Source of the DNA: Blastocatellia bacterium
GTDB taxonomy: Bacteria > Acidobacteriota > Blastocatellia > UBA7656
Reading direction: 5' to 3'
Assembly: GCA_045807725.1 (NCBI GenBank)
Contig: JBJMGV010000115.1
Location: 452-64,451 of the forward strand
Length of the DNA: 64,000 nucleotides
Shown in pieces: positions 11,176 to 31,540 of the stretch. The translations under genes and the position numbers were made by a program. The notes under the pieces were generated by a model. That model worked only from the letters and a program-made list of their open reading frames with translations, was not told the DNA's origin and did no database searches. Each line of letters begins with the position of its first letter. Position 1 is the first letter of the stretch.

Positions 11176-11226
11176 CTCAGCCTGCTCTTGATGAGAGGGT
11201 GCGCGCTGTGTCGCCAGCAGGTATTT

Positions 11227-12243
11227 ATGACGAAGATAACTTTTCGCTATTGCTTTTTCGCCATCCTTGCGGCTGGGCTGTTAGCCGTTACCGCCTACGG
11301 GCAAGACACTTTCCACAATCCAGCCTTCGAGACTGATGATGAATTCGGCAAAGCCTTCGCCCAGGCCCGCCGCCTGCTGACGCAAGGCAAGGTGGACGAC
11401 GCCATCAAAGAGTTCAGCCGCGCCGCCGCGCTCAAGAATGGACAGTGCGTCGAATGCTTCTCCTCGATTGGCCAGGCCAACCTTCAGTTGAACAAATACA
11501 AGGAAGCCGCCGCCGCCTTTCAACGCGGCGCTGATTTGAACTCGCCGCAACAGGCCGAACTCTATAACTACGCCGGCGTGGCGCTCTACTGGGCGGATGA
11601 CAAATCGCTGCTTAATGAAGCGGCGGCGATGTTCAAGCGGGCCATTGAAACCGGCAACGATAAGATCGCCCAGGCTTATTACAATCTCGGTTACGCGTTG
11701 ATAAAGGCCGGCAAGAACGACGAAGGCATTGCGGCGCTGAAGACCTATCTCGAAAAGAACCCCGGCGCGCCTGAAACCGAGTCCGTCAAAGCCGTCATCG
11801 CCAACCCGAAGCTTGCCGCCGGATTTGCTTTTCCGTTCAAGGTAACGTCGGCCAATGGCGACGAGCTGTCGCTCGACAAATTCAAAGGCAAGGTTGTCTT
11901 GCTGGATTTCTGGGCGAGCTGGTGCGGCCCTTGCCGCGCCGATATGCCGGCGGTCAAGCGGCTGTGGCAGGACTATCAGAAAGAGAACTTCATCCTCATC
12001 GGCATCAACCTCGATAGCAACCGCAAAGCGTTTGAGCAATACGTCAAGGAAGAGGGCGTGACGTGGCCGCAGTTCTATGACGGCAAACGCTGGGGCAACC
12101 GCATCGCGGAACTCTACAACGTCCACTCGATCCCGATGACGTTCTTGATCGACCAGCAGGGCATGATCCGCGCGTCGGGTCTGCGCGGTGAGCGGCTCTA
12201 TGGCAAGATCGGCGACTTGCTGAAGGAAAAGCCGAAGCCTTAG
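11227..12243 (+). CDS. TPR-repeat protein fused to a TlpA-like thioredoxin domain (thiol-disulfide oxidoreductase)
   Basis: Signal peptide, TPR repeats, C-terminal FWASWCGPCRADMP redox motif. Start taken at MTKITF. Confidence 0.7.
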   Translation: MTKITFRYCFFAILAAGLLAVTAYGQDTFHNPAFETDDEFGKAFAQARRLLTQGKVDDAIKEFSRAAALKNGQCVECFSSIGQANLQLNKYKEAAAAFQRGADLNSPQQAELYNYAGVALYWADDKSLLNEAAAMFKRAIETGNDKIAQAYYNLGYALIKAGKNDEGIAALKTYLEKNPGAPETESVKAVIANPKLAAGFAFPFKVTSANGDELSLDKFKGKVVLLDFWASWCGPCRADMPAVKRLWQDYQKENFILIGINLDSNRKAFEQYVKEEGVTWPQFYDGKRWGNRIAELYNVHSIPMTFLIDQQGMIRASGLRGERLYGKIGDLLKEKPKP

Positions 12244-12257
12244 CCTTCATACTCGTT

Positions 12258-13043
12258 CTATTCTTCTGCGCCGTATTCCGCGTATTCGTACTCGATGACT
12301 TCGCCGGGCAGCGCTGGGGCTTCGAGCAGACTCAGTGCGTCGCGCAGGACGTTCTTGTGCAGATCGGCCATGCCGGGCCGGCCCATCGAATTGCCAATCT
12401 TGAAACCAACCGGATAGAGCGCGCGCGGCGGGCGCATCTGCTTCGAGACTTCAGGGCTGACGGTAATCAACACCGTTGGAATTCCACGCATTTCAATCTC
12501 ACGCTGGACCGCAACGACCGTGCGGTGACAAACGTTCGGTCAGCCGCCGGTCAGTATCACCGCGTCGGCGCGCGAACGCTTGTCTATCTCGTCGGCGATC
12601 TGCGGCGCGGTCTCTTCATACATACGCTTGAGCTGCATGGTGTATCCCATAAAGCCGACGTGACTGCGCGCCTCGCCGGCAATGAAGCCTTCGGCGATAA
12701 GCGCGCGCAACGCGTCGATTGGAAAGACGACGTTGATGTCGCGGTCGGCGTCGGTGTGATCGTAGTGATGATGAGTGACCATCAAATCGCTCGCCTGCGC
12801 TTCTGGTGTAATGACGCGGTAGGTCAGGTCGCCAAGCTCGTCGGCGATATTGAATGCCGGTTGATCTTTGCGGTGCACGCCTGCTGCCGTGACGATGGCG
12901 ACGGAGAGGCGTGATAGCTCGCGGTCAAGCGGCGTGTAAGGCACGCACTTTCGTGAGAGTTGAGACATCGCACATTCCTCTGTGATTGTGTTGAGGCTGG
13001 AAGGATGAACCGGCGCGGCGAGAATCCAGCGAGTCTGCTTCAC
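12258..13043 (-). CDS. GrdB/PrdB-family (glycine/sarcosine/betaine/D-proline reductase selenoprotein B family) selenoprotein homolog
   Basis: Track ORFs 12540..13043 and 12258..12491 are in the same frame. They are separated only by TGA at 12537-12539 and read-through codons with no intervening stop. The joined protein reads ...RADAVILTGG-U-PNVCHRTVVAVQREIEMRGIPTVLITV... A hairpin accgca/tgcggt (12508-12526) starts 11 nt after the TGA. The true start may be the internal ATG at 12968 (MSQLSRK) rather than the GTG at 13043. Confidence 0.65.
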
Positions 13044-13086: not shown

Positions 13087-13548
13087 TCAGTCGAGCTTTC
13101 TCAGCACGTCGTGGATGACTTCGTTATCGGGCTGGTCGCCGATTTCGTGGATGTCTTTGTAGGCAAGCTTACCTTGCTTGTCTACAACGAACAGGGCGCG
13201 CTCTGAATAGCCTTCGGGCCGCAGCGCACCGTACATCTGCGCCACCGCGCCTTTAGGTTCAAAGTCTGAGAGGAGATCGTAAGAGATGTTGCCGAGGCTC
13301 TTGGCCCAGGCTTTGTTGCAGGGGACGGAGTCAACCGATATACCCAGCACGTGGGTATCACGCTCCTCGAAGCGGCTGAGATCAGCCTCATACGAGGGCA
13401 TCTGTACGGTTCAAACGGGCGTCCAGGCCAGCGGGTAGAACGCGATGAAGACGTTCTTCTTGCCGCGAAAGTCGGACAGCTTGACTTTGTTGCCGTTGTG
13501 GCTCGGCAGCTCAAAGTCGGGAGCCATTTCGCCTACTTCTACAGCCAT
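13087..13548 (-). CDS. Selenocysteine-containing peroxiredoxin (PrxQ/BCP-type; Sec replaces the peroxidatic Cys)
   Basis: The track shows only the C-terminal 104 aa (13087..13401). Reading upstream in frame gives TGA at 13411-13413, then [57 protein letters not shown]... This is a textbook Prx N-terminus with U where the peroxidatic Cys belongs. ATG at 13546-13548 with AGGAGGA 6 nt upstream. Small hairpins lie 12-25 nt after the TGA (cctc-guau-gagg; ggcug-aucu-cagcc). Confidence 0.75.
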
Positions 13549-13686
13549 TGGCATTCCTCCTGAAAAAAATTTAACTGCACTTGTCTATGGTTTATGCCAA
13601 CCGCCTGCCGAAGTCAAGCCGATCAGGCAGCGCCAGTTGACAGTTTTATCTACAGCTTTCGCTCGCCGATTTGACAAAGATTAGAT

Positions 13687-13701
13687 TTAGAATTATTCTA
13701 A
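13687..13701. promoter_or_regulatory. PerR/Fur-type operator (perfect 7-1-7 palindrome TTAGAATTATTCTAA)
   Basis: Matches the Bacillus-type PerR box TTATAATNATTATAA at 13 of 15 positions, with the two mismatches symmetric. Overlaps a putative TTGACA-N17-TATTCT promoter. Lies 8 bp upstream of the regulator ATG in the divergent region shared with the Sec-peroxiredoxin. Confidence 0.55.
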
Positions 13702-13709
13702 ATATCGAG

Positions 13710-14129
13710 ATGGCAGTTCAACGAAAAATTTCGGGCCTTGTAAGTCGGAAGGCCAACCTGACGCGCCAGCGCGAGGTCGTGCTGCAAGTCGTCAGCGAGG
13801 CTGAGCATCACCCGACCGCCGCCGAGGTCTTCGAGCAGGCCAAGAAGCTATTGCCGACCATCAGCTTTGCGACCGTTTACAACTCGCTGCGCCACTTGAA
13901 GGAATCAGGGCTGATCCTTGAGATCACTTTCGGCAACGCCGCCAGCCGTTACGACGGCGAGACCAGCCGCCACGACCACGCCGTCTGCACGCGTTGCGGA
14001 AAGCTGGTCGATTTTGACCTGGCGGAGACGGTTGAGTTGATGCGCGCGGCGGCGCGGCGCACGCGCTTCAAACCCGAAACGATTCACCTGACGCTTCTCG
14101 GCCTCTGTCCCGACTGTCGTGGAGATTAG
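13710..14129 (+). CDS. Fur-family transcriptional regulator, probably a PerR-like peroxide sensor
   Basis: HHxH and CxxC...CxxC motifs (HDHAVCTRCG..CPDC). Start taken at ATG 13710; the track start is a TTG extension. Flanked by peroxiredoxin genes. Confidence 0.7.
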   Translation: MAVQRKISGLVSRKANLTRQREVVLQVVSEAEHHPTAAEVFEQAKKLLPTISFATVYNSLRHLKESGLILEITFGNAASRYDGETSRHDHAVCTRCGKLVDFDLAETVELMRAAARRTRFKPETIHLTLLGLCPDCRGD

Positions 14130-14218
14130 GCCGAAAACGTGACTGGTTCATAACGCAATTATTCACGCGGCGAAGTTGCTTGCCGCAAGAGAGTCCAGTT
14201 CCAATCGAAGGAGGAAAG

Positions 14219-14785
14219 ATGTCAGCAACTGCTCAATCAATCGAGAAATCTCAGATCGGCCAACCGGCCCCGGATTTTGATATGGCCTCGACCCGCAATG
14301 TCGAGAAGCTGAACGAGAACGTCAAGCTCTCGGATTATCGCGGCAAGTGGGTCGTGCTGTTGTTTTACCCGCTCGACTTCACGTTCGTTTGCCCGACCGA
14401 GTTGACCACCTTCAGTGATCGCTACGACGATTTTGAAGGCATCAACGCCGAAGTCATCGGCGTGTCTACCGATTCCGTTTATTCGCACCGCGCCTGGCTG
14501 CAAACGGCGCGCGATAAGGGCGGCGTCGAAGGGCTGCGTTACCCGCTGGCCTCGGATATCACCGGCAGCGTGGCGCGCGATTACGGCGTGCTGATCGAAG
14601 GCAAAGGCATCGCCCTGCGCGGCCTGTTCGTCATCGATCCCGAAGGTATTCTCCGTTACAAAGTTGTTCACGACCTGAACATCGGTCGCTCGGCTGAAGA
14701 GACGCTGCGCGTCATCCAGGCCTTGCAGACCGGCGGGCTGTGCCAGGCCGAGTGGCGTCCGGGTCAGAAGACGCTCAACGGCTAA
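14219..14785 (+). CDS. ahpC: Typical 2-Cys peroxiredoxin (AhpC/TSA family)
   Basis: FTFVCPTE peroxidatic motif, resolving Cys near the C-terminus. GGAGGAAAG 0 nt before the ATG at 14219. Confidence 0.85.
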   Translation: MSATAQSIEKSQIGQPAPDFDMASTRNVEKLNENVKLSDYRGKWVVLLFYPLDFTFVCPTELTTFSDRYDDFEGINAEVIGVSTDSVYSHRAWLQTARDKGGVEGLRYPLASDITGSVARDYGVLIEGKGIALRGLFVIDPEGILRYKVVHDLNIGRSAEETLRVIQALQTGGLCQAEWRPGQKTLNG

Positions 14786-14806
14786 ACGTCCAACGCAACG
14801 TCAATC

Positions 14807-14849
14807 ATGGGCGACGGGCGGCCTAGCCCTGTCGCCCATTCGTTTGTTC
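14807..14849 (+). terminator. Rho-independent terminator after ahpC
   Basis: Stem atgggcgac / gtcgcccat followed by tcgtttgttc. Confidence 0.55.
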
Positions 14850-14876
14850 AGTCCGCGAGATCAGGAGGGGAAGATT

Positions 14877-15350
14877 ATGCCGATGAGAATCAACACGCCG
14901 ATGCCTGGCTTTGACGGCGCGACCGAATGGATCAATAGCGAGCCGGGCGATGCGACATCAGCCAAATTGACGCTGGTACATTTCTGGTCTTTGAGCTGCG
15001 GCATCTGCAAAGAGAATTTGCCGCGCGTCGCCGAGTGGCGCGAGTCGCATCGAGACAGCGGCCTGCGTGTCATCGCTGTTCATATGCCGCGCTACCCTGC
15101 CGATGTTGATGTCAACGCCGTGCGCGAAGCGATTAGCGCTTACGGTATCAACGAAGCGTGCGCGGTTGATAACGAACACAAGCTGCGCGACGCCTTTCAG
15201 AATGAGCAAGGGTTTGTGCCGGCTTATTACCTGTTCGATGCTGAAGGCAAGCTGCGCGGCTTTGCGGCGGGCGAGCGCGGCATTGATATGATTGCGCCGA
15301 CCTTGAAGCGGCTGCTTGTGTCGGTCGCCTCGCAAGAAGCTGCCGGCTAA
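14877..15350 (+). CDS. Thioredoxin-like / TlpA-redoxin family protein
   Basis: HFWSLSCGICKENLP CxxC motif. CAGGAGGGG RBS before the internal ATG. Confidence 0.7.
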   Translation: MPMRINTPMPGFDGATEWINSEPGDATSAKLTLVHFWSLSCGICKENLPRVAEWRESHRDSGLRVIAVHMPRYPADVDVNAVREAISAYGINEACAVDNEHKLRDAFQNEQGFVPAYYLFDAEGKLRGFAAGERGIDMIAPTLKRLLVSVASQEAAG

Positions 15351-16873
15351 GCCGGAGGCGAAACTTTTTTAAGGGCCGCCTGCCGCATCGTTTCGATAGA
15401 CGGCAGGCGGCCCGTCCATAATTCAAACTGGCGCGCGGCCTGCGCCACCAGCATCTCGATCCCGCTCAAACCCAGACAGCCGTGCCGTCGTGCGTCGGCC
15501 AGAAACCGCGTCTCAAGCGGGTTATAAACCAGATCGTAAGCGATGCGGCGACCGTGCCACGTGTCTGCGTGAATGACGCTCGTGCCGTCGCTATGATTCG
15601 TCATTCCGACGGGCGTTGTGTTGATGATGACCTCTGCATCGCTTTCGCTTATCGCATCGAGGTGATTCATCTCAACGCCGAACTCGTCGGCCAATGCGGC
15701 GGCCTTGTTCATATCGCGGGCGAAGATCGTCACGCGCGCGCCGCGCTCAAGCAAGCCGAAGACGACCGCCCGCGCTGAGCCGCCTGTTCCAATCACCGCG
15801 CAATGCGTCGCCCGCAATTCGGTTAAGTCGGCAAGCGGCGCGATGGCTCCATACGCATCGGTGTTGTAGCCTTTCAGTCGATTGCCTTCGACCACTACAG
15901 TATTCACCGCGCCGATGCGCCGCGCCGTTTCGTCCATCTCATCCAGGAAGGGAATGACCGCCGTTTTGTGCGGAATCGTCACGCTAAAGCCGCGCAGCCG
16001 CCAATCCATCTCGCGCGTCGCTGGCCGCACAAAGCGTTTGAAGAATGCTTCAACGTTGCCGACTTCAAAAGGCAGATAAATGTAATCCAGCCCACACTCT
16101 CGAAAGGCGCGATTGTGCATCAGCGGCGATGCCGAATGCGAGACCGGCTTGCCGATGATGCCGACAATCTGTGTGTCGCGGCTCAGGCTGTGGATGCGAT
16201 AAAGGTCGCGCAGTTCGTCGCACGTCACCTGGCCGGGCGCGCTTTCGTGCCCGCGCCTCATTGAGCCGAACGTCAGAAAGCTGCCGCGCGAAGGGCCGAG
16301 TATTCTCGTCACCATACCCGCTTCCTGCATAGCGATAGCGATGATTGTTTGACCTTCGAGCCGTGCGCGCTTGAGCAGGGCGAATACTTCAAGCGAATCG
16401 CTGATGTCGTTGGCGCGCACGGCGATCTTATGAATGGCTGCCGGCAAGCTCGTCAAACGGTCGAATATAGTCGTTAAATCGGCGGGCGTTTCGTTGAAGT
16501 TGTGATAAGAGACGATGAGCCGTGATGGATCAAGCAGCCTCGCCACGCGCTCGTCATAGTGCGCGGCTTCGATGTCGCAGTAATCCGCGCCCTGTTCTAA
16601 CGACGCGGCGAGCAGCCGCAAGCGCACGCCCTTATCAATCGTTTGCTGACCGCCTTCGTCAGCCGCGCGACAGGTGGCGATGACCGGCAGAGGCTTTTGT
16701 TTGAGCAACGCGCTCAGCCTCGATGGATCGTTGAAATCGAAATCGCGCAGGTAATCAAGCCGCAGTTCGATCAGGTCGGCAACCGTGGCCGCGCGTTGCA
16801 TCGCCGCCCGCGCTTCGCTAACGGTCGGCTCAGTGATGACGGCGCAGATTCTCGCTTCTTGTTCAGCCATCAC
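15347..16873 (-). CDS. aroDE: Bifunctional 3-dehydroquinate dehydratase (type I) / shikimate dehydrogenase
   Basis: N-terminal AroD-like TIM barrel (ICAVITEPTVSEARAA...). C-terminal AroE (GKPVSHSASPLMHNRAF, Rossmann GTGGSARAV). Confidence 0.85.
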   Translation of the reverse strand: MMAEQEARICAVITEPTVSEARAAMQRAATVADLIELRLDYLRDFDFNDPSRLSALLKQKPLPVIATCRAADEGGQQTIDKGVRLRLLAASLEQGADYCDIEAAHYDERVARLLDPSRLIVSYHNFNETPADLTTIFDRLTSLPAAIHKIAVRANDISDSLEVFALLKRARLEGQTIIAIAMQEAGMVTRILGPSRGSFLTFGSMRRGHESAPGQVTCDELRDLYRIHSLSRDTQIVGIIGKPVSHSASPLMHNRAFRECGLDYIYLPFEVGNVEAFFKRFVRPATREMDWRLRGFSVTIPHKTAVIPFLDEMDETARRIGAVNTVVVEGNRLKGYNTDAYGAIAPLADLTELRATHCAVIGTGGSARAVVFGLLERGARVTIFARDMNKAAALADEFGVEMNHLDAISESDAEVIINTTPVGMTNHSDGTSVIHADTWHGRRIAYDLVYNPLETRFLADARRHGCLGLSGIEMLVAQAARQFELWTGRLPSIETMRQAALKKVSPPA

Positions 16874-16900
16874 TTGCGGGGCGGGTCGTTGTCGCTGATC

Positions 16901-17845
16901 TCATTCTTCGTCAAATGCAAACACGTCGGTTGAAAGATAACGCTCACCGAAATCGGGGAGCACGGCAACGACACGCTTGCCTTCGCCCAACTCGGCGGCA
17001 ATCTTCAGCGCCGCCCAACAGATTGCGCCCGACGAGACGCCGCACAGAATGCCTTCTTCGCGCGCCAGCCGCCGCGTCATCTCTTTGGCGTCGGCATATT
17101 CGACCGGCACGATGCGGTCAATCAAGTCCATATTGAGCACGGCGGGAATGAAGCCCGCGCCGATGCCTTGAATCTTGTGCGGGCCGGGGACGCCGCCCGA
17201 CAGCACCGGCGAATCTTTCGGCTCGACGGCGATCAGCTTCACGTCGCGCAGGCGGTCTTTGAGCACTTCGCCGACGCCTGTGATCGTGCCGCCCGTGCCG
17301 ACGCCGGCAACCAGCGCATCAAGCCGCGCGTCGGTGTCTTCGATAATCTCAAGCGCCGTCGTCGAGCGGTGAATGGCCGGGTTCGCCGGGTTCTCGAACT
17401 GCATAGGGATGAAGCTGTCGGGCGTCTCATCACGCAAGCGCTCGGCGGTGGCAATCGCGTCGTTCATCCCTTGCGCGCCGGGCGTCAAGACGACTTCCGC
17501 GCCGAGCGCGCGCAGCACACGTATGCGCTCGATGCTCATCGAATCGGGCATCGTCAGAATCAAGCGATAGCCTCTGGCGGCGGCGGCCATCGCCAGGCCG
17601 ATGCCGGTGTTGCCCGATGTCGGTTCGATGATCGTCGTGACGCCGGGCGTGATACGGCCTTCGCGCTCGGCGGCAAGAATCATCGAAGCGCCGATGCGAT
17701 CTTTAACCGAGCACATAGGGTTGAAGGATTCGAGCTTGACGAGCACTTCGGCAGCATTGGCTGCGGGCAGGCGATTCAAACGCACCAGCGGCGTGTGGCC
17801 GATGGTTTCAAGGATGCTGCTGCTTATCTTCGGATGACGCGACAT
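16901..17845 (-). CDS. cysK: Cysteine synthase (O-acetylserine sulfhydrylase)
   Basis: PLP-fold type [13 protein letters not shown] lysine motif. 314 aa. Confidence 0.85.
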
Positions 17846-31080: not shown

Positions 31081-31540
31081 TCCCGTAGGGACGCGATGTT
31101 TATAGAGCGTGTCTGAGAAGCCCTGAAGGGGCGGGATTCGACAGCCCAGGGCATCGCCCTGGGTGAGCGGCAGGGCAAACCGCCAAGCCCTGAAAGGGCG
31201 CACTAGGTGATCGGTTATTGCGCCCTTTCAGGGCTTGCGGAGTTGTCGCTGAGTGTACCCAGCCCGTTGGGCTGGGCTATTGAATCGCGCCCTTTCAGGG
31301 CTTCTCAGACCCGCTCAATAGTTACGCAGGCGGTTTAATCTTCAAGCTCCGTCAGGAGCGCGATGTTTATAGAAATGGCTGAAGGATGTGACGAAGCCCC
31401 GTAGGGGCGCAATGTTGACATCACGCTCCTGACGGAGCTTGAAGACTCAATCAACTGCATAACTATAAACATTGCGCTCCTAACGGAGCTTGTTTGATCT
31501 ATGGCATCGTTGACTATAAACATTGCGCTCCTAACGGAGC
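31081..31540. repeat. Mosaic array of short palindromic repeat units (REP/MITE-like), no ORF
   Basis: Unit GGAGCGC(G/A)ATGTTTATAG appears four times: twice direct at 31089-31106 and 31355-31372, twice inverted at 31463-31479 and 31513-31529. Unit AAGCCCTGAA(A/G)GGGCGC appears four times at 31113-31130, 31183-31199, 31219-31235 and 31286-31302, in alternating orientation. Unit GCTCCGTCAGGAGCG also appears four times. Two self-palindromes: cccagggcatcgccctggg and cccagcccgttgggctggg. Confidence 0.7.

Follow-up and report, generated by a model that had tools for sequence, protein, structure and literature searches.

The stretch of DNA analyzed here comes from a soil acidobacterium of the class Blastocatellia (contig JBJMGV010000115.1, positions 452 to 64,451) and is called the window in what follows, always meaning the whole 64,000 nucleotides (nt). 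It carries perR, a gene for a regulator of the Fur family, with a palindromic DNA box in its promoter and two further genes behind it, one for a peroxiredoxin (prx) and one for a thioredoxin-like protein similar to YkuV of Bacillus subtilis. Our analysis indicates that this locus is very probably a PerR-type peroxide sensor together with the operator by which it would control its own three-gene operon. The evidence that carries this reading is of several kinds: the features of the sequence itself, their conservation in related genomes, the class of the regulator protein, the order of the genes, and the recurrence of the same box next to peroxide-defence genes elsewhere.

The predicted operator is a perfect palindrome of 19 bp, ATTTAGAATTATTCTAAAT, at 13685-13703, which belongs to neither strand in particular and has a 7-1-7 core, TTAGAATTATTCTAA, at 13687-13701. 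The core had been described in an initial annotation of this DNA as a perfect 7-1-7 palindrome that overlaps a TTGACA-N17-TATTCT promoter and ends 8 nt before the start codon of the regulator; all of this is borne out by the sequence, and the palindrome extends further than was stated. The promoter of the perR operon (13671-13699, plus strand) consists of a -35 hexamer TTGACA at 13671-13676, a 17-nt spacer and a -10 hexamer TATTCT at 13694-13699 that lies inside the palindrome. In a consensus scan it is the top sigma-70-like site of the region, with 10 of 12 positions matched, and the perR ATG at 13710 stands 8 nt past the box and 10 nt past the -10. In the whole window the core is the sole site with three or fewer mismatches to itself, and it is also the sole site with three or fewer mismatches to the B. 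subtilis Per box consensus TTATAATNATTATAA (cited in Rodionov et al., 2004, PMC545781); the two mismatches to this consensus are placed symmetrically. All positions specified in the streptococcal Per-box consensus TTANAATNATTNTAA (PMC2518855) are matched by the box. A search of the window for further boxes, to three and to four mismatches, gave no credible site besides 13687-13701. Perfect 7-1-7 palindromes are common as such, with 6 in the window and 4.8 in shuffles; of the AT-rich ones, 0.04 are expected in this window of 58.6% GC and one was observed.

The decisive evidence for an operator is conservation across genomes. Our sample was made of 80 perR loci from Blastocatellia and Pyrinomonadaceae (Acidobacteriota), one genome per species, in which the regulator is 59-84% identical to that of the window, and the best match to the 15-mer core was sought in the 360 nt around each perR start codon. 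Of the 80 loci, 57 have the exact 15-mer, 21 differ from it at one position and 2 at two. When the sequences are aligned without gaps on the box (81 sequences, with the window), column identity is 0.8-1.0 over the 15-mer and about 0.3 elsewhere, and the TTGACA hexamer 10 nt upstream of the box reaches 0.8-0.9 at a fixed spacing. Box positions outside the -10 hexamer are kept as strongly as those inside it and both halves stay symmetric, which argues for the site of a dimeric repressor, as predicted, since a bare promoter would not lead us to expect such symmetry beyond the -10. No second box was found anywhere in the 604 kb of perR loci. It is thus a well-supported prediction that the palindrome is the operator of the regulator encoded beside it and, because this operator overlaps the regulator's own promoter and the box is conserved in the 80 loci, the autoregulation proposed in the initial annotation is predicted as well. 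Directly upstream of the core lies a hexamer resembling a half-site, TTAGAT (13681-13686, plus strand), a putative extra half-site. It is present in the closest relatives of the window (L001-L011, L018, L022, and L028; L numbers denote the loci and contigs that we compared) and at two dps promoters (L107 and L208), and is missing from most Pyrinomonadaceae loci.

The gene perR (13710-14129, plus strand) encodes a 139-amino acid protein, predicted from family scans, structure matches and residues to be a peroxide-sensing repressor, which matches the Pfam FUR family (PF01475) with 96.1 bits over residues 16-129. The NCBIfam models rank PerR (99.6 and 95.3 bits) above Bacillus Fur (68.8), Irr (55.8) and Zur (33.4), and this is to be read as a ranking that does not certify orthology to characterised PerRs, the PerR scores being below the equivalog cutoffs of 200 and 180 bits. 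The two Irr models give 55.8 bits (NF045677, cutoff 170) and 51.9 bits (NF045678, cutoff 150), which leaves the protein outside the Irr family. Among the 23 solved Fur-family structures that match the protein, the best is PerR of B. subtilis (2fe3; 4.8e-28), followed by a streptococcal PerR (3e-19), the best Fur (8e-18) and Zur (1e-4). The alignment with B. subtilis PerR is gap-free with a residue offset of three, so that H34, D82, H88, H90, and D101 correspond to the regulatory site H37, D85, H91, H93, and D104; C93, C96, C133, and C136, in two CxxC motifs, correspond to C96, C99, C136, and C139 of the Zn(Cys)4 site; and N58, which is found in the recognition helix (ATVYNSL), corresponds to N61. 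Across the 80 orthologs no change is seen in four of the regulatory ligands, the Cys4 site and N58; the fifth ligand, D101, is replaced by Asn in a single ortholog. Asn61 and Asp104 are described as canonical for PerR, with Arg and Glu in Fur, in the passage of PMC8638851 that cites Caux-Thang 2015 and Parent 2013. In our alignment, the Fur of C. jejuni has Glu at both Asp positions. The choice between PerR, Fur and Zur had been left by the initial annotation to the metal-site residues, and on these predicted residues the regulator is classed as PerR-type, not as Fur or Zur. Many of its homologs are named ‘Fur family peroxide stress response transcriptional regulator’ by the JGI pipeline.

If the box is a PerR operator it can be expected to recur near other redox genes, and this is what we see; the initial annotation had named a lack of such further copies as part of what would refute it, and the copies exist. 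An exact scan of metagenome contigs with the 15-mer gave at least 120 stretches, and among the matches listed 109 open reading frames (ORFs) start no more than 200 nt from the box and point away from it. Scanned against Pfam, these ORFs, again among the matches listed, include 12 Rubrerythrin, 10 Ferritin/Dps, 7 FUR, 3 KatG-type peroxidase, 3 VIT1, 2 glutamyl-tRNA reductase (hemA), and 2 AhpC-TSA members, and no iron-uptake family reached two members in the same set. One metagenome Dps locus (L107) has an extended sequence, ATTAGATTTAGAAT.ATTCTAAAT, in common with the window, and homologs 83-88% identical to its Dps are labelled Blastocatellia or Pyrinomonadaceae. Four dps loci from these two groups were then chosen by protein identity and not by the motif, and in all four a box with 0-1 mismatch precedes the dps ATG by 10-19 nt. 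From these promoters dps is predicted to be a second member of the regulon in the class Blastocatellia, and the regulon would therefore include at least perR-prx-ahpT and dps. Within the 64-kb window we found neither dps nor a second Fur-family gene.

The order of the genes behind perR is almost fixed. A 2-Cys prx is the next gene on the same strand in 78 of the 80 loci, with the third gene behind it in 76; the exceptions are loci cut by contig ends. The spacer between perR and prx has a median of 89 nt, and a promoter-like site occurs in one of 79 such spacers, compared to 2.7 in shuffles; the spacers that we inspected end in a strong GGAGG ribosome-binding site. We also considered an independent control of prx by PerR and rejected it, as there is neither a second box nor an internal promoter between the two genes. 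For the same reason the simplest assumption is that the boxed promoter also drives prx and the third gene, in one predicted transcript with perR, a point that had been overlooked in the initial annotation.

The second gene (prx; 14219-14785, plus strand, with a GGAGGA ribosome-binding site at 14210-14215) encodes a typical 2-Cys peroxiredoxin with its peroxidatic cysteine in FVCPTE and its resolving cysteine in GGLCQAEW. It matches Pfam AhpC-TSA (2e-42), and its best structures are the 2-Cys peroxiredoxins BAS1 and Prx2 (7e-59), ahead of Salmonella AhpC (5e-32). Its segments DFTFVCPTE and GGLCQAEWRPG align with BAS1, as in typical 2-Cys peroxiredoxins of the Prx1 subfamily, and the AhpC model TIGR03137 gives 150.5 bits, which is below its cutoff of 272 bits. 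The gene that follows is YkuV-like and not AhpF. What had been called a canonical 2-Cys AhpC (FTFVCPTE) does have the motif and is a 2-Cys peroxiredoxin, but it is of the Prx1 type with a YkuV/AhpT-like candidate reductant and is not part of an AhpC/AhpF system. The CxxC thioredoxin-like gene reported downstream is present at 14877-15350 (plus strand) and encodes a cytoplasmic thiol-disulfide oxidoreductase (WSLSCGIC), to which B. subtilis YkuV (2b5x) is a full-length match (1.9e-35). In B. subtilis, the nonclassical peroxiredoxin YkuU (AhpA), which works without AhpF, is reported to have YkuV (AhpT) as its apparent reductase (PMC5300871), and by analogy the YkuV-like protein is probably the reductant of the 2-Cys peroxiredoxin here. 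Between prx and the ykuV-like gene a consensus scan found a terminator-like hairpin followed by ATTCGTTTGT (14816-14837, plus strand). Terminator-like sites in the region are not above shuffles and this hairpin is weak; if real, it would attenuate the operon rather than end it.

A further observation concerns a 5.3-kb JGI contig from a close relative, in which cysK, an aroD/aroE fusion, perR, a divergent selenocysteine peroxiredoxin (Sec-Prx) gene and a PrdB-like gene are found as in the window (13710-17845). The contig has no prx and no ykuV-like gene between perR and aroDE. Together with L211, in which the box is retained, it indicates that the cargo of the operon can be lost or moved while perR and the box stay.

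The start of the message is also of interest. The gene perR has no Shine-Dalgarno sequence, and its ATG comes 10-11 nt after the -10 in the window and in some 25 relatives, as opposed to 17-21 or 25-29 nt in most other relatives. In the first group the perR mRNA is probably leaderless or near-leaderless. A leaderless perR followed by a prx with a strong ribosome-binding site would let a single transcript yield much enzyme but only little of the regulator. In the spacer between the two genes, a GC-rich hairpin, GCGGCGAAGTTGCTTGCCGC, can be read from the sequence at 14167-14186 (plus strand), with no T-run after it. GC-rich inverted repeats recur by eye in many perR-prx spacers (e.g., L013, L019, L020, and L026), sometimes with a distant CTCTTTT. 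As a guess, such repeats may be an element for processing or stabilising the mRNA, or a partial terminator that sets the ratio of regulator to enzyme.

Based on these features we suggest a mechanism in which DNA binding, metal, peroxide response, transcript boundaries and redox pairing are all predicted. The palindrome ATTTAGAATTATTCTAAAT would be bound by a dimer of PerR, which has a structural Zn(Cys)4 site and a regulatory Fe/Mn site made of His34, Asp82, His88, His90, and Asp101. Bound there, the dimer would block RNA polymerase, since the operon's single promoter has its -10 and part of its spacer within the palindrome. By analogy to B. subtilis PerR, H2O2 would oxidise an iron-liganding histidine, the repressor would leave the DNA and the operon would be transcribed. 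The operon would then yield low amounts of PerR, which has no ribosome-binding site, high amounts of the 2-Cys peroxiredoxin, which has a strong one, and a YkuV/AhpT-like protein that may recycle the peroxiredoxin.

One possible option that has to be weighed against this reading is that the palindrome is merely the -10 region of an AT-rich promoter, with no dedicated regulator, and that it resembles a Per box by chance. The abundance of 7-1-7 palindromes in general would allow for this and the -10 hexamer inside the box would be kept anyway. Yet, all 15 positions are kept across 80 species, including the 8 outside the -10 and with symmetric halves, the same 15-mer is found at dps promoters in a different place relative to the -35, and it also stands beside peroxide-defence genes of unrelated high-GC bacteria, so that we consider a chance match highly improbable. 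Another hypothesis is that the regulator is iron-responsive, either Fur-like or Irr-like, that the box is a Fur or Irr box, and that the prx operon and dps respond to iron status. The segment 13686-13702 matches 14 of 14 specified positions of the Irr iron control element (ICE) of Bradyrhizobium, TTTAGAA-N3-TTCTAAA (PMC1698941), and the predicted Fur box of Riemerella anatipestifer is the identical 19-mer (PMC5609570). The match to the Bacillus PerR box at 13 of 15 positions, which had been used in the initial annotation, is correct, including its two symmetric differences, but it does not discriminate between these regulators. The exact 15-mer is also located 3-38 nt upstream of erythrin-VIT1 (MbfA-like) genes in high-GC contigs (L103, L145, L146, L159, L179, and L185). 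Such genes are targets of Irr, and these metagenome matches are probably Irr rather than PerR targets; they fit alpha-proteobacterial Irr/ICE sites, and the same sequence would thus be in use in two or more Fur-family branches. In addition, dps and ferritin-like genes are iron-related and the PerR models score under their curated cutoffs. These points weigh against a PerR operon, as do the single box in the window and the fact that the co-transcription, the leaderless start and the role of the YkuV-like reductant were read from the sequence only.

The DNA motif alone cannot name the regulator and, as it is common to PerR, Irr and Fur boxes, the assignment to PerR rests on the residues of the protein and on the target genes. 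Both speak against control by iron. The protein has the PerR-diagnostic residues N58, D101, and D82, where Fur has Arg and Glu, and the PerR models score about 30 bits above any Fur model and about 44 above Irr. Irr, found in Bradyrhizobium and other alpha-proteobacteria, likewise belongs to the Fur family and has the identical DNA motif, but the regulator of the window keeps the PerR ligands and both CxxC pairs. Irr of Bradyrhizobium is not known to have these pairs. The local targets are a peroxiredoxin and its predicted reductant, which are genes of peroxide defence and not of iron and haem as for Irr, and an iron-uptake family that would recur among the 109 box-adjacent ORFs listed, as expected for Fur, was not seen. 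An iron-responsive regulator is thus left with a small chance. The last alternative accepts PerR and extends its reach: the single box would be a shared divergent operator, PerR would also repress the operon on the other side, which encodes the Sec-Prx and a PrdB-like protein, and the whole cluster would be one peroxide-stress island. The Sec-Prx is a peroxidase, for which control by peroxide would make sense, and there is more linkage to perR-like genes at the loci of such peroxiredoxins than chance suggests, in three arrangements: divergent and with the operon (window, L001, L002, and L010), divergent with a monocistronic perR-like gene (L202, L211, and the 5.3-kb contig), and with the perR-like gene downstream on the same strand (L203). 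The two promoters of L211 stand back to back, with only about 30 nt between the box and the Sec-Prx -35. However, the Sec-Prx gene has a conserved promoter-like block of its own, with no box-like site in it or downstream of it. Counted from the predicted Sec-Prx start, the centre of the box lies about 110 bp upstream in the window and about 73 bp upstream in L211, which means that neither the spacing nor the helical phase is kept. The Sec-Prx gene adjoins perR in only 4 of 81 perR loci; in the other 77 the upstream gene is an unrelated one that varies and is often co-directional, and the box is equally conserved. L202 (4271-4853) and L203 (1965-2533) have PerR-like genes with the same ligands, 67-68% identical to that of the window, beside Sec-Prx/PrdB pairs, and no TTAGAAT-type box within three mismatches; these genes may be paralogs with a different operator, or may be co-transcribed. 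Pairs with cysteine (L201 and L205) and pairs with selenocysteine (L204 and the P0179 contig) also occur with no Fur-family neighbour. The linkage is suggestive but insufficient, and we regard a shared operator as possible but doubtful. The co-regulation of the Sec-Prx that the initial annotation had predicted is therefore not supported, and of its compact redox-defence cluster all the genes are present, but as two modules side by side and not as one co-regulated cluster. Most likely the Sec-Prx and PrdB-like genes are a separate module, not controlled via this box. We also looked at a minus-strand site, TTGAAC-N18-AATAAT (13721-13692), as a boxed promoter for the Sec-Prx; its -35 is not kept in L002 and L010, and it was set aside as a chance match.

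Compared to known systems, the PerR-type regulator and its operator resemble PerR of B. subtilis and its Per box. In common are the fold, the Zn(Cys)4 site, the five regulatory ligands and Asn61, a 7-1-7 repeat that lies on the promoter, an autoregulated perR and a regulon with a peroxiredoxin. The Bacillus PerR regulon also includes a Dps-type protein, MrgA. The differences are that the operator of the window has G/C at positions 4 and 12 (TTAGAAT-N-ATTCTAA), that perR heads an operon with its target enzymes whereas Bacillus perR is monocistronic, that AhpC and AhpF are replaced by an AhpA/Prx1-like target peroxiredoxin and a YkuV-type reductant, and that the similarity of the regulator is under the NCBIfam equivalog cutoff. 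Operons led by perR with an upstream palindrome have been described in Desulfovibrio vulgaris (perR-rbr-rdl) and Geobacter (perR-rbr-roo; Rodionov et al., 2004, PMC545781). As in the window, perR leads peroxide-detoxifying genes there, the Geobacter palindrome overlaps the -10, and few genes, most of them local, are predicted to be in the regulon (PMC545781), but their cargo is rubrerythrin, rubredoxin and Roo instead of a 2-Cys peroxiredoxin and a YkuV-like protein, and the operator sequences differ. The AhpA (YkuU)/AhpT (YkuV) pair of B. subtilis is resembled through the third gene, a full-length YkuV homolog; in the window the putative counterpart of the pair sits within the perR operon, unlike in Bacillus, where ahpA is expressed in biofilm formation and hardly in exponential growth (PMC5300871). 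Another example of a peroxiredoxin controlled by a PerR-like repressor is found in Synechocystis. There slr1738 (PerR-like) and sll1621 (peroxiredoxin) are divergent neighbours, like perR and the Sec-Prx gene in the window. The expression of sll1621 rises in the slr1738 mutant (PMC2190772); in the window, however, the peroxiredoxin tied to the box is the co-directional 2-Cys one and not the divergent one.

Acidobacteria are abundant soil bacteria, and our literature search found no paper on PerR or peroxide-stress regulation in them. What the analysis offers for Blastocatellia is the testable core of a PerR regulon: the perR-prx-ahpT operon and dps, with a consensus for the operator and the layout of the promoter. 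Annotation based on motifs calls for care, because the same 15-19 bp serves PerR-, Irr- and, reportedly, Fur-type regulators across phyla. The understanding of PerR systems is unchanged by it, as this is an ordinary member of a known regulatory system in a different phylum. The neighbouring Sec-Prx/PrdB-like pair is a more open question than the perR operon.

The Sec-Prx gene (13087-13554, minus strand) encodes a peroxiredoxin of the AhpE subfamily in which the peroxidatic cysteine is replaced by a predicted selenocysteine, with the UGA at 13411-13413 in the context AWTPV-U-T (motif TPVU). Its closest match is AhpE of Mycobacterium tuberculosis (Rv2238c; 2e-27 over the full length), with which it has the TxxU motif of the Sec-Prx family in common, and it differs from AhpE in having selenocysteine for the peroxidatic cysteine and in being paired with a PrdB-like (seleno)protein. 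To our knowledge, no such pairing has been described for AhpE. The in-frame TGA and both of its flanks are kept in four orthologs; cysteine-form homologs reach up to 78% identity, and the selenocysteine forms appear in databases as 104-amino acid fragments. A stem-loop resembling a selenocysteine insertion sequence (SECIS; 13360-13401, minus strand) starts 12 nt after the UGA. It folds with a minimum free energy of -22.6 kcal/mol (z = -2.9; none of 200 shuffles folds as well), and the same fold is found in L001 and L002. No compensatory pairs were seen in the hairpin, the three sequences being too similar to show covariation. The UGA, the conservation on both sides of it, the stem-loop and the cysteine homologs are all what would be expected of a selenoprotein of the Prx (TxxU)/AhpE type. 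Selenoproteins of the Prx (TxxU) family and of the PrdB-like family are abundant and have been known for a long time (PMC2398784). The Sec-decoding genes selA, selB, and selD are not in the 64-kb window and no tRNA-Sec was found in it; an Rfam scan of the window gave no match in the region of the Sec-Prx gene and perR.

Downstream of the Sec-Prx gene lies the gene of a PrdB/GrdB-like selenoprotein (12258-12968, minus strand; UGA at 12540-12542, in GG-U-PNVC), which matches Pfam GRDB and scores 184 bits with the NCBIfam PrdB model, below its cutoff of 300 bits. Beyond it is the gene of a TPR-TlpA protein (11188-12243, plus strand), as found by family scans; both genes had been reported on this side of the regulator, as a GrdB-like selenoprotein and a TPR-TlpA oxidoreductase, and both are there. 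The promoter-like block of the Sec-Prx gene (13589-13617, minus strand) has a -35 TTGACT at 13617-13612, a spacer of 17 nt and a weak -10, TAAACC, at 13594-13589, from which the position of the transcription start can be predicted. The block CTTGAC..TTGG.ATAAA.CA is kept in the window, L001, L002, and L010, and also in L202, L203, and L211. After TAAACC, the Sec-Prx intergenic regions of the window, L001, L002, and L010 continue with GCAGTTAAAT and then GGAGGA. In a wider comparison, GCAGTTAAAT (13569-13578, minus strand), between the putative -10 and the ribosome-binding site, is present in the window, L001, L002, L202, and L211 and is changed in L010 and L203. It could be the region of the transcript start or the site of another regulator.

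Wherever a locus has both the AhpE-like peroxiredoxin and the PrdB-like gene, the two are neighbours on the same strand. Pairs in which both have selenocysteine were seen in the window, L001, L002, L010, L202, L203, L204, and L211 and in three further contigs, and pairs in which both have cysteine in L201 and L205, with GGCPEVC in place of the GGUPNVC of the window. No mixed pair was seen among the loci sampled, and L206 has a cysteine-type peroxiredoxin alone, with no perR-like gene next to it. The pattern of the pairs suggests that the two proteins may work together, possibly as peroxidase and reductant. We know of no function assigned to the PrdB-like selenoproteins of aerobic bacteria. A bolder reading is that the Sec-Prx and the PrdB-like protein (U/C-xxx-C) form a self-contained two-selenoprotein peroxide reductase, in which the latter would recycle a one-Sec peroxiredoxin, and which may be tied to PerR in this sublineage via the distant box or through a PerR-like mode that needs no box, as in L202 and L203. 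The constant adjacency, the lack of mixed pairs and the perR-like neighbour in three arrangements are compatible with it, and we hold it to be rather unlikely.

In another part of the window, two matches to the Rfam Acido-Lenti-1 RNA (RF01687) are found at 31119-31163 (minus strand) and 31258-31302 (plus strand), about 95 nt apart, with 40.4 and 41.5 bits, both above the gathering score of 37.

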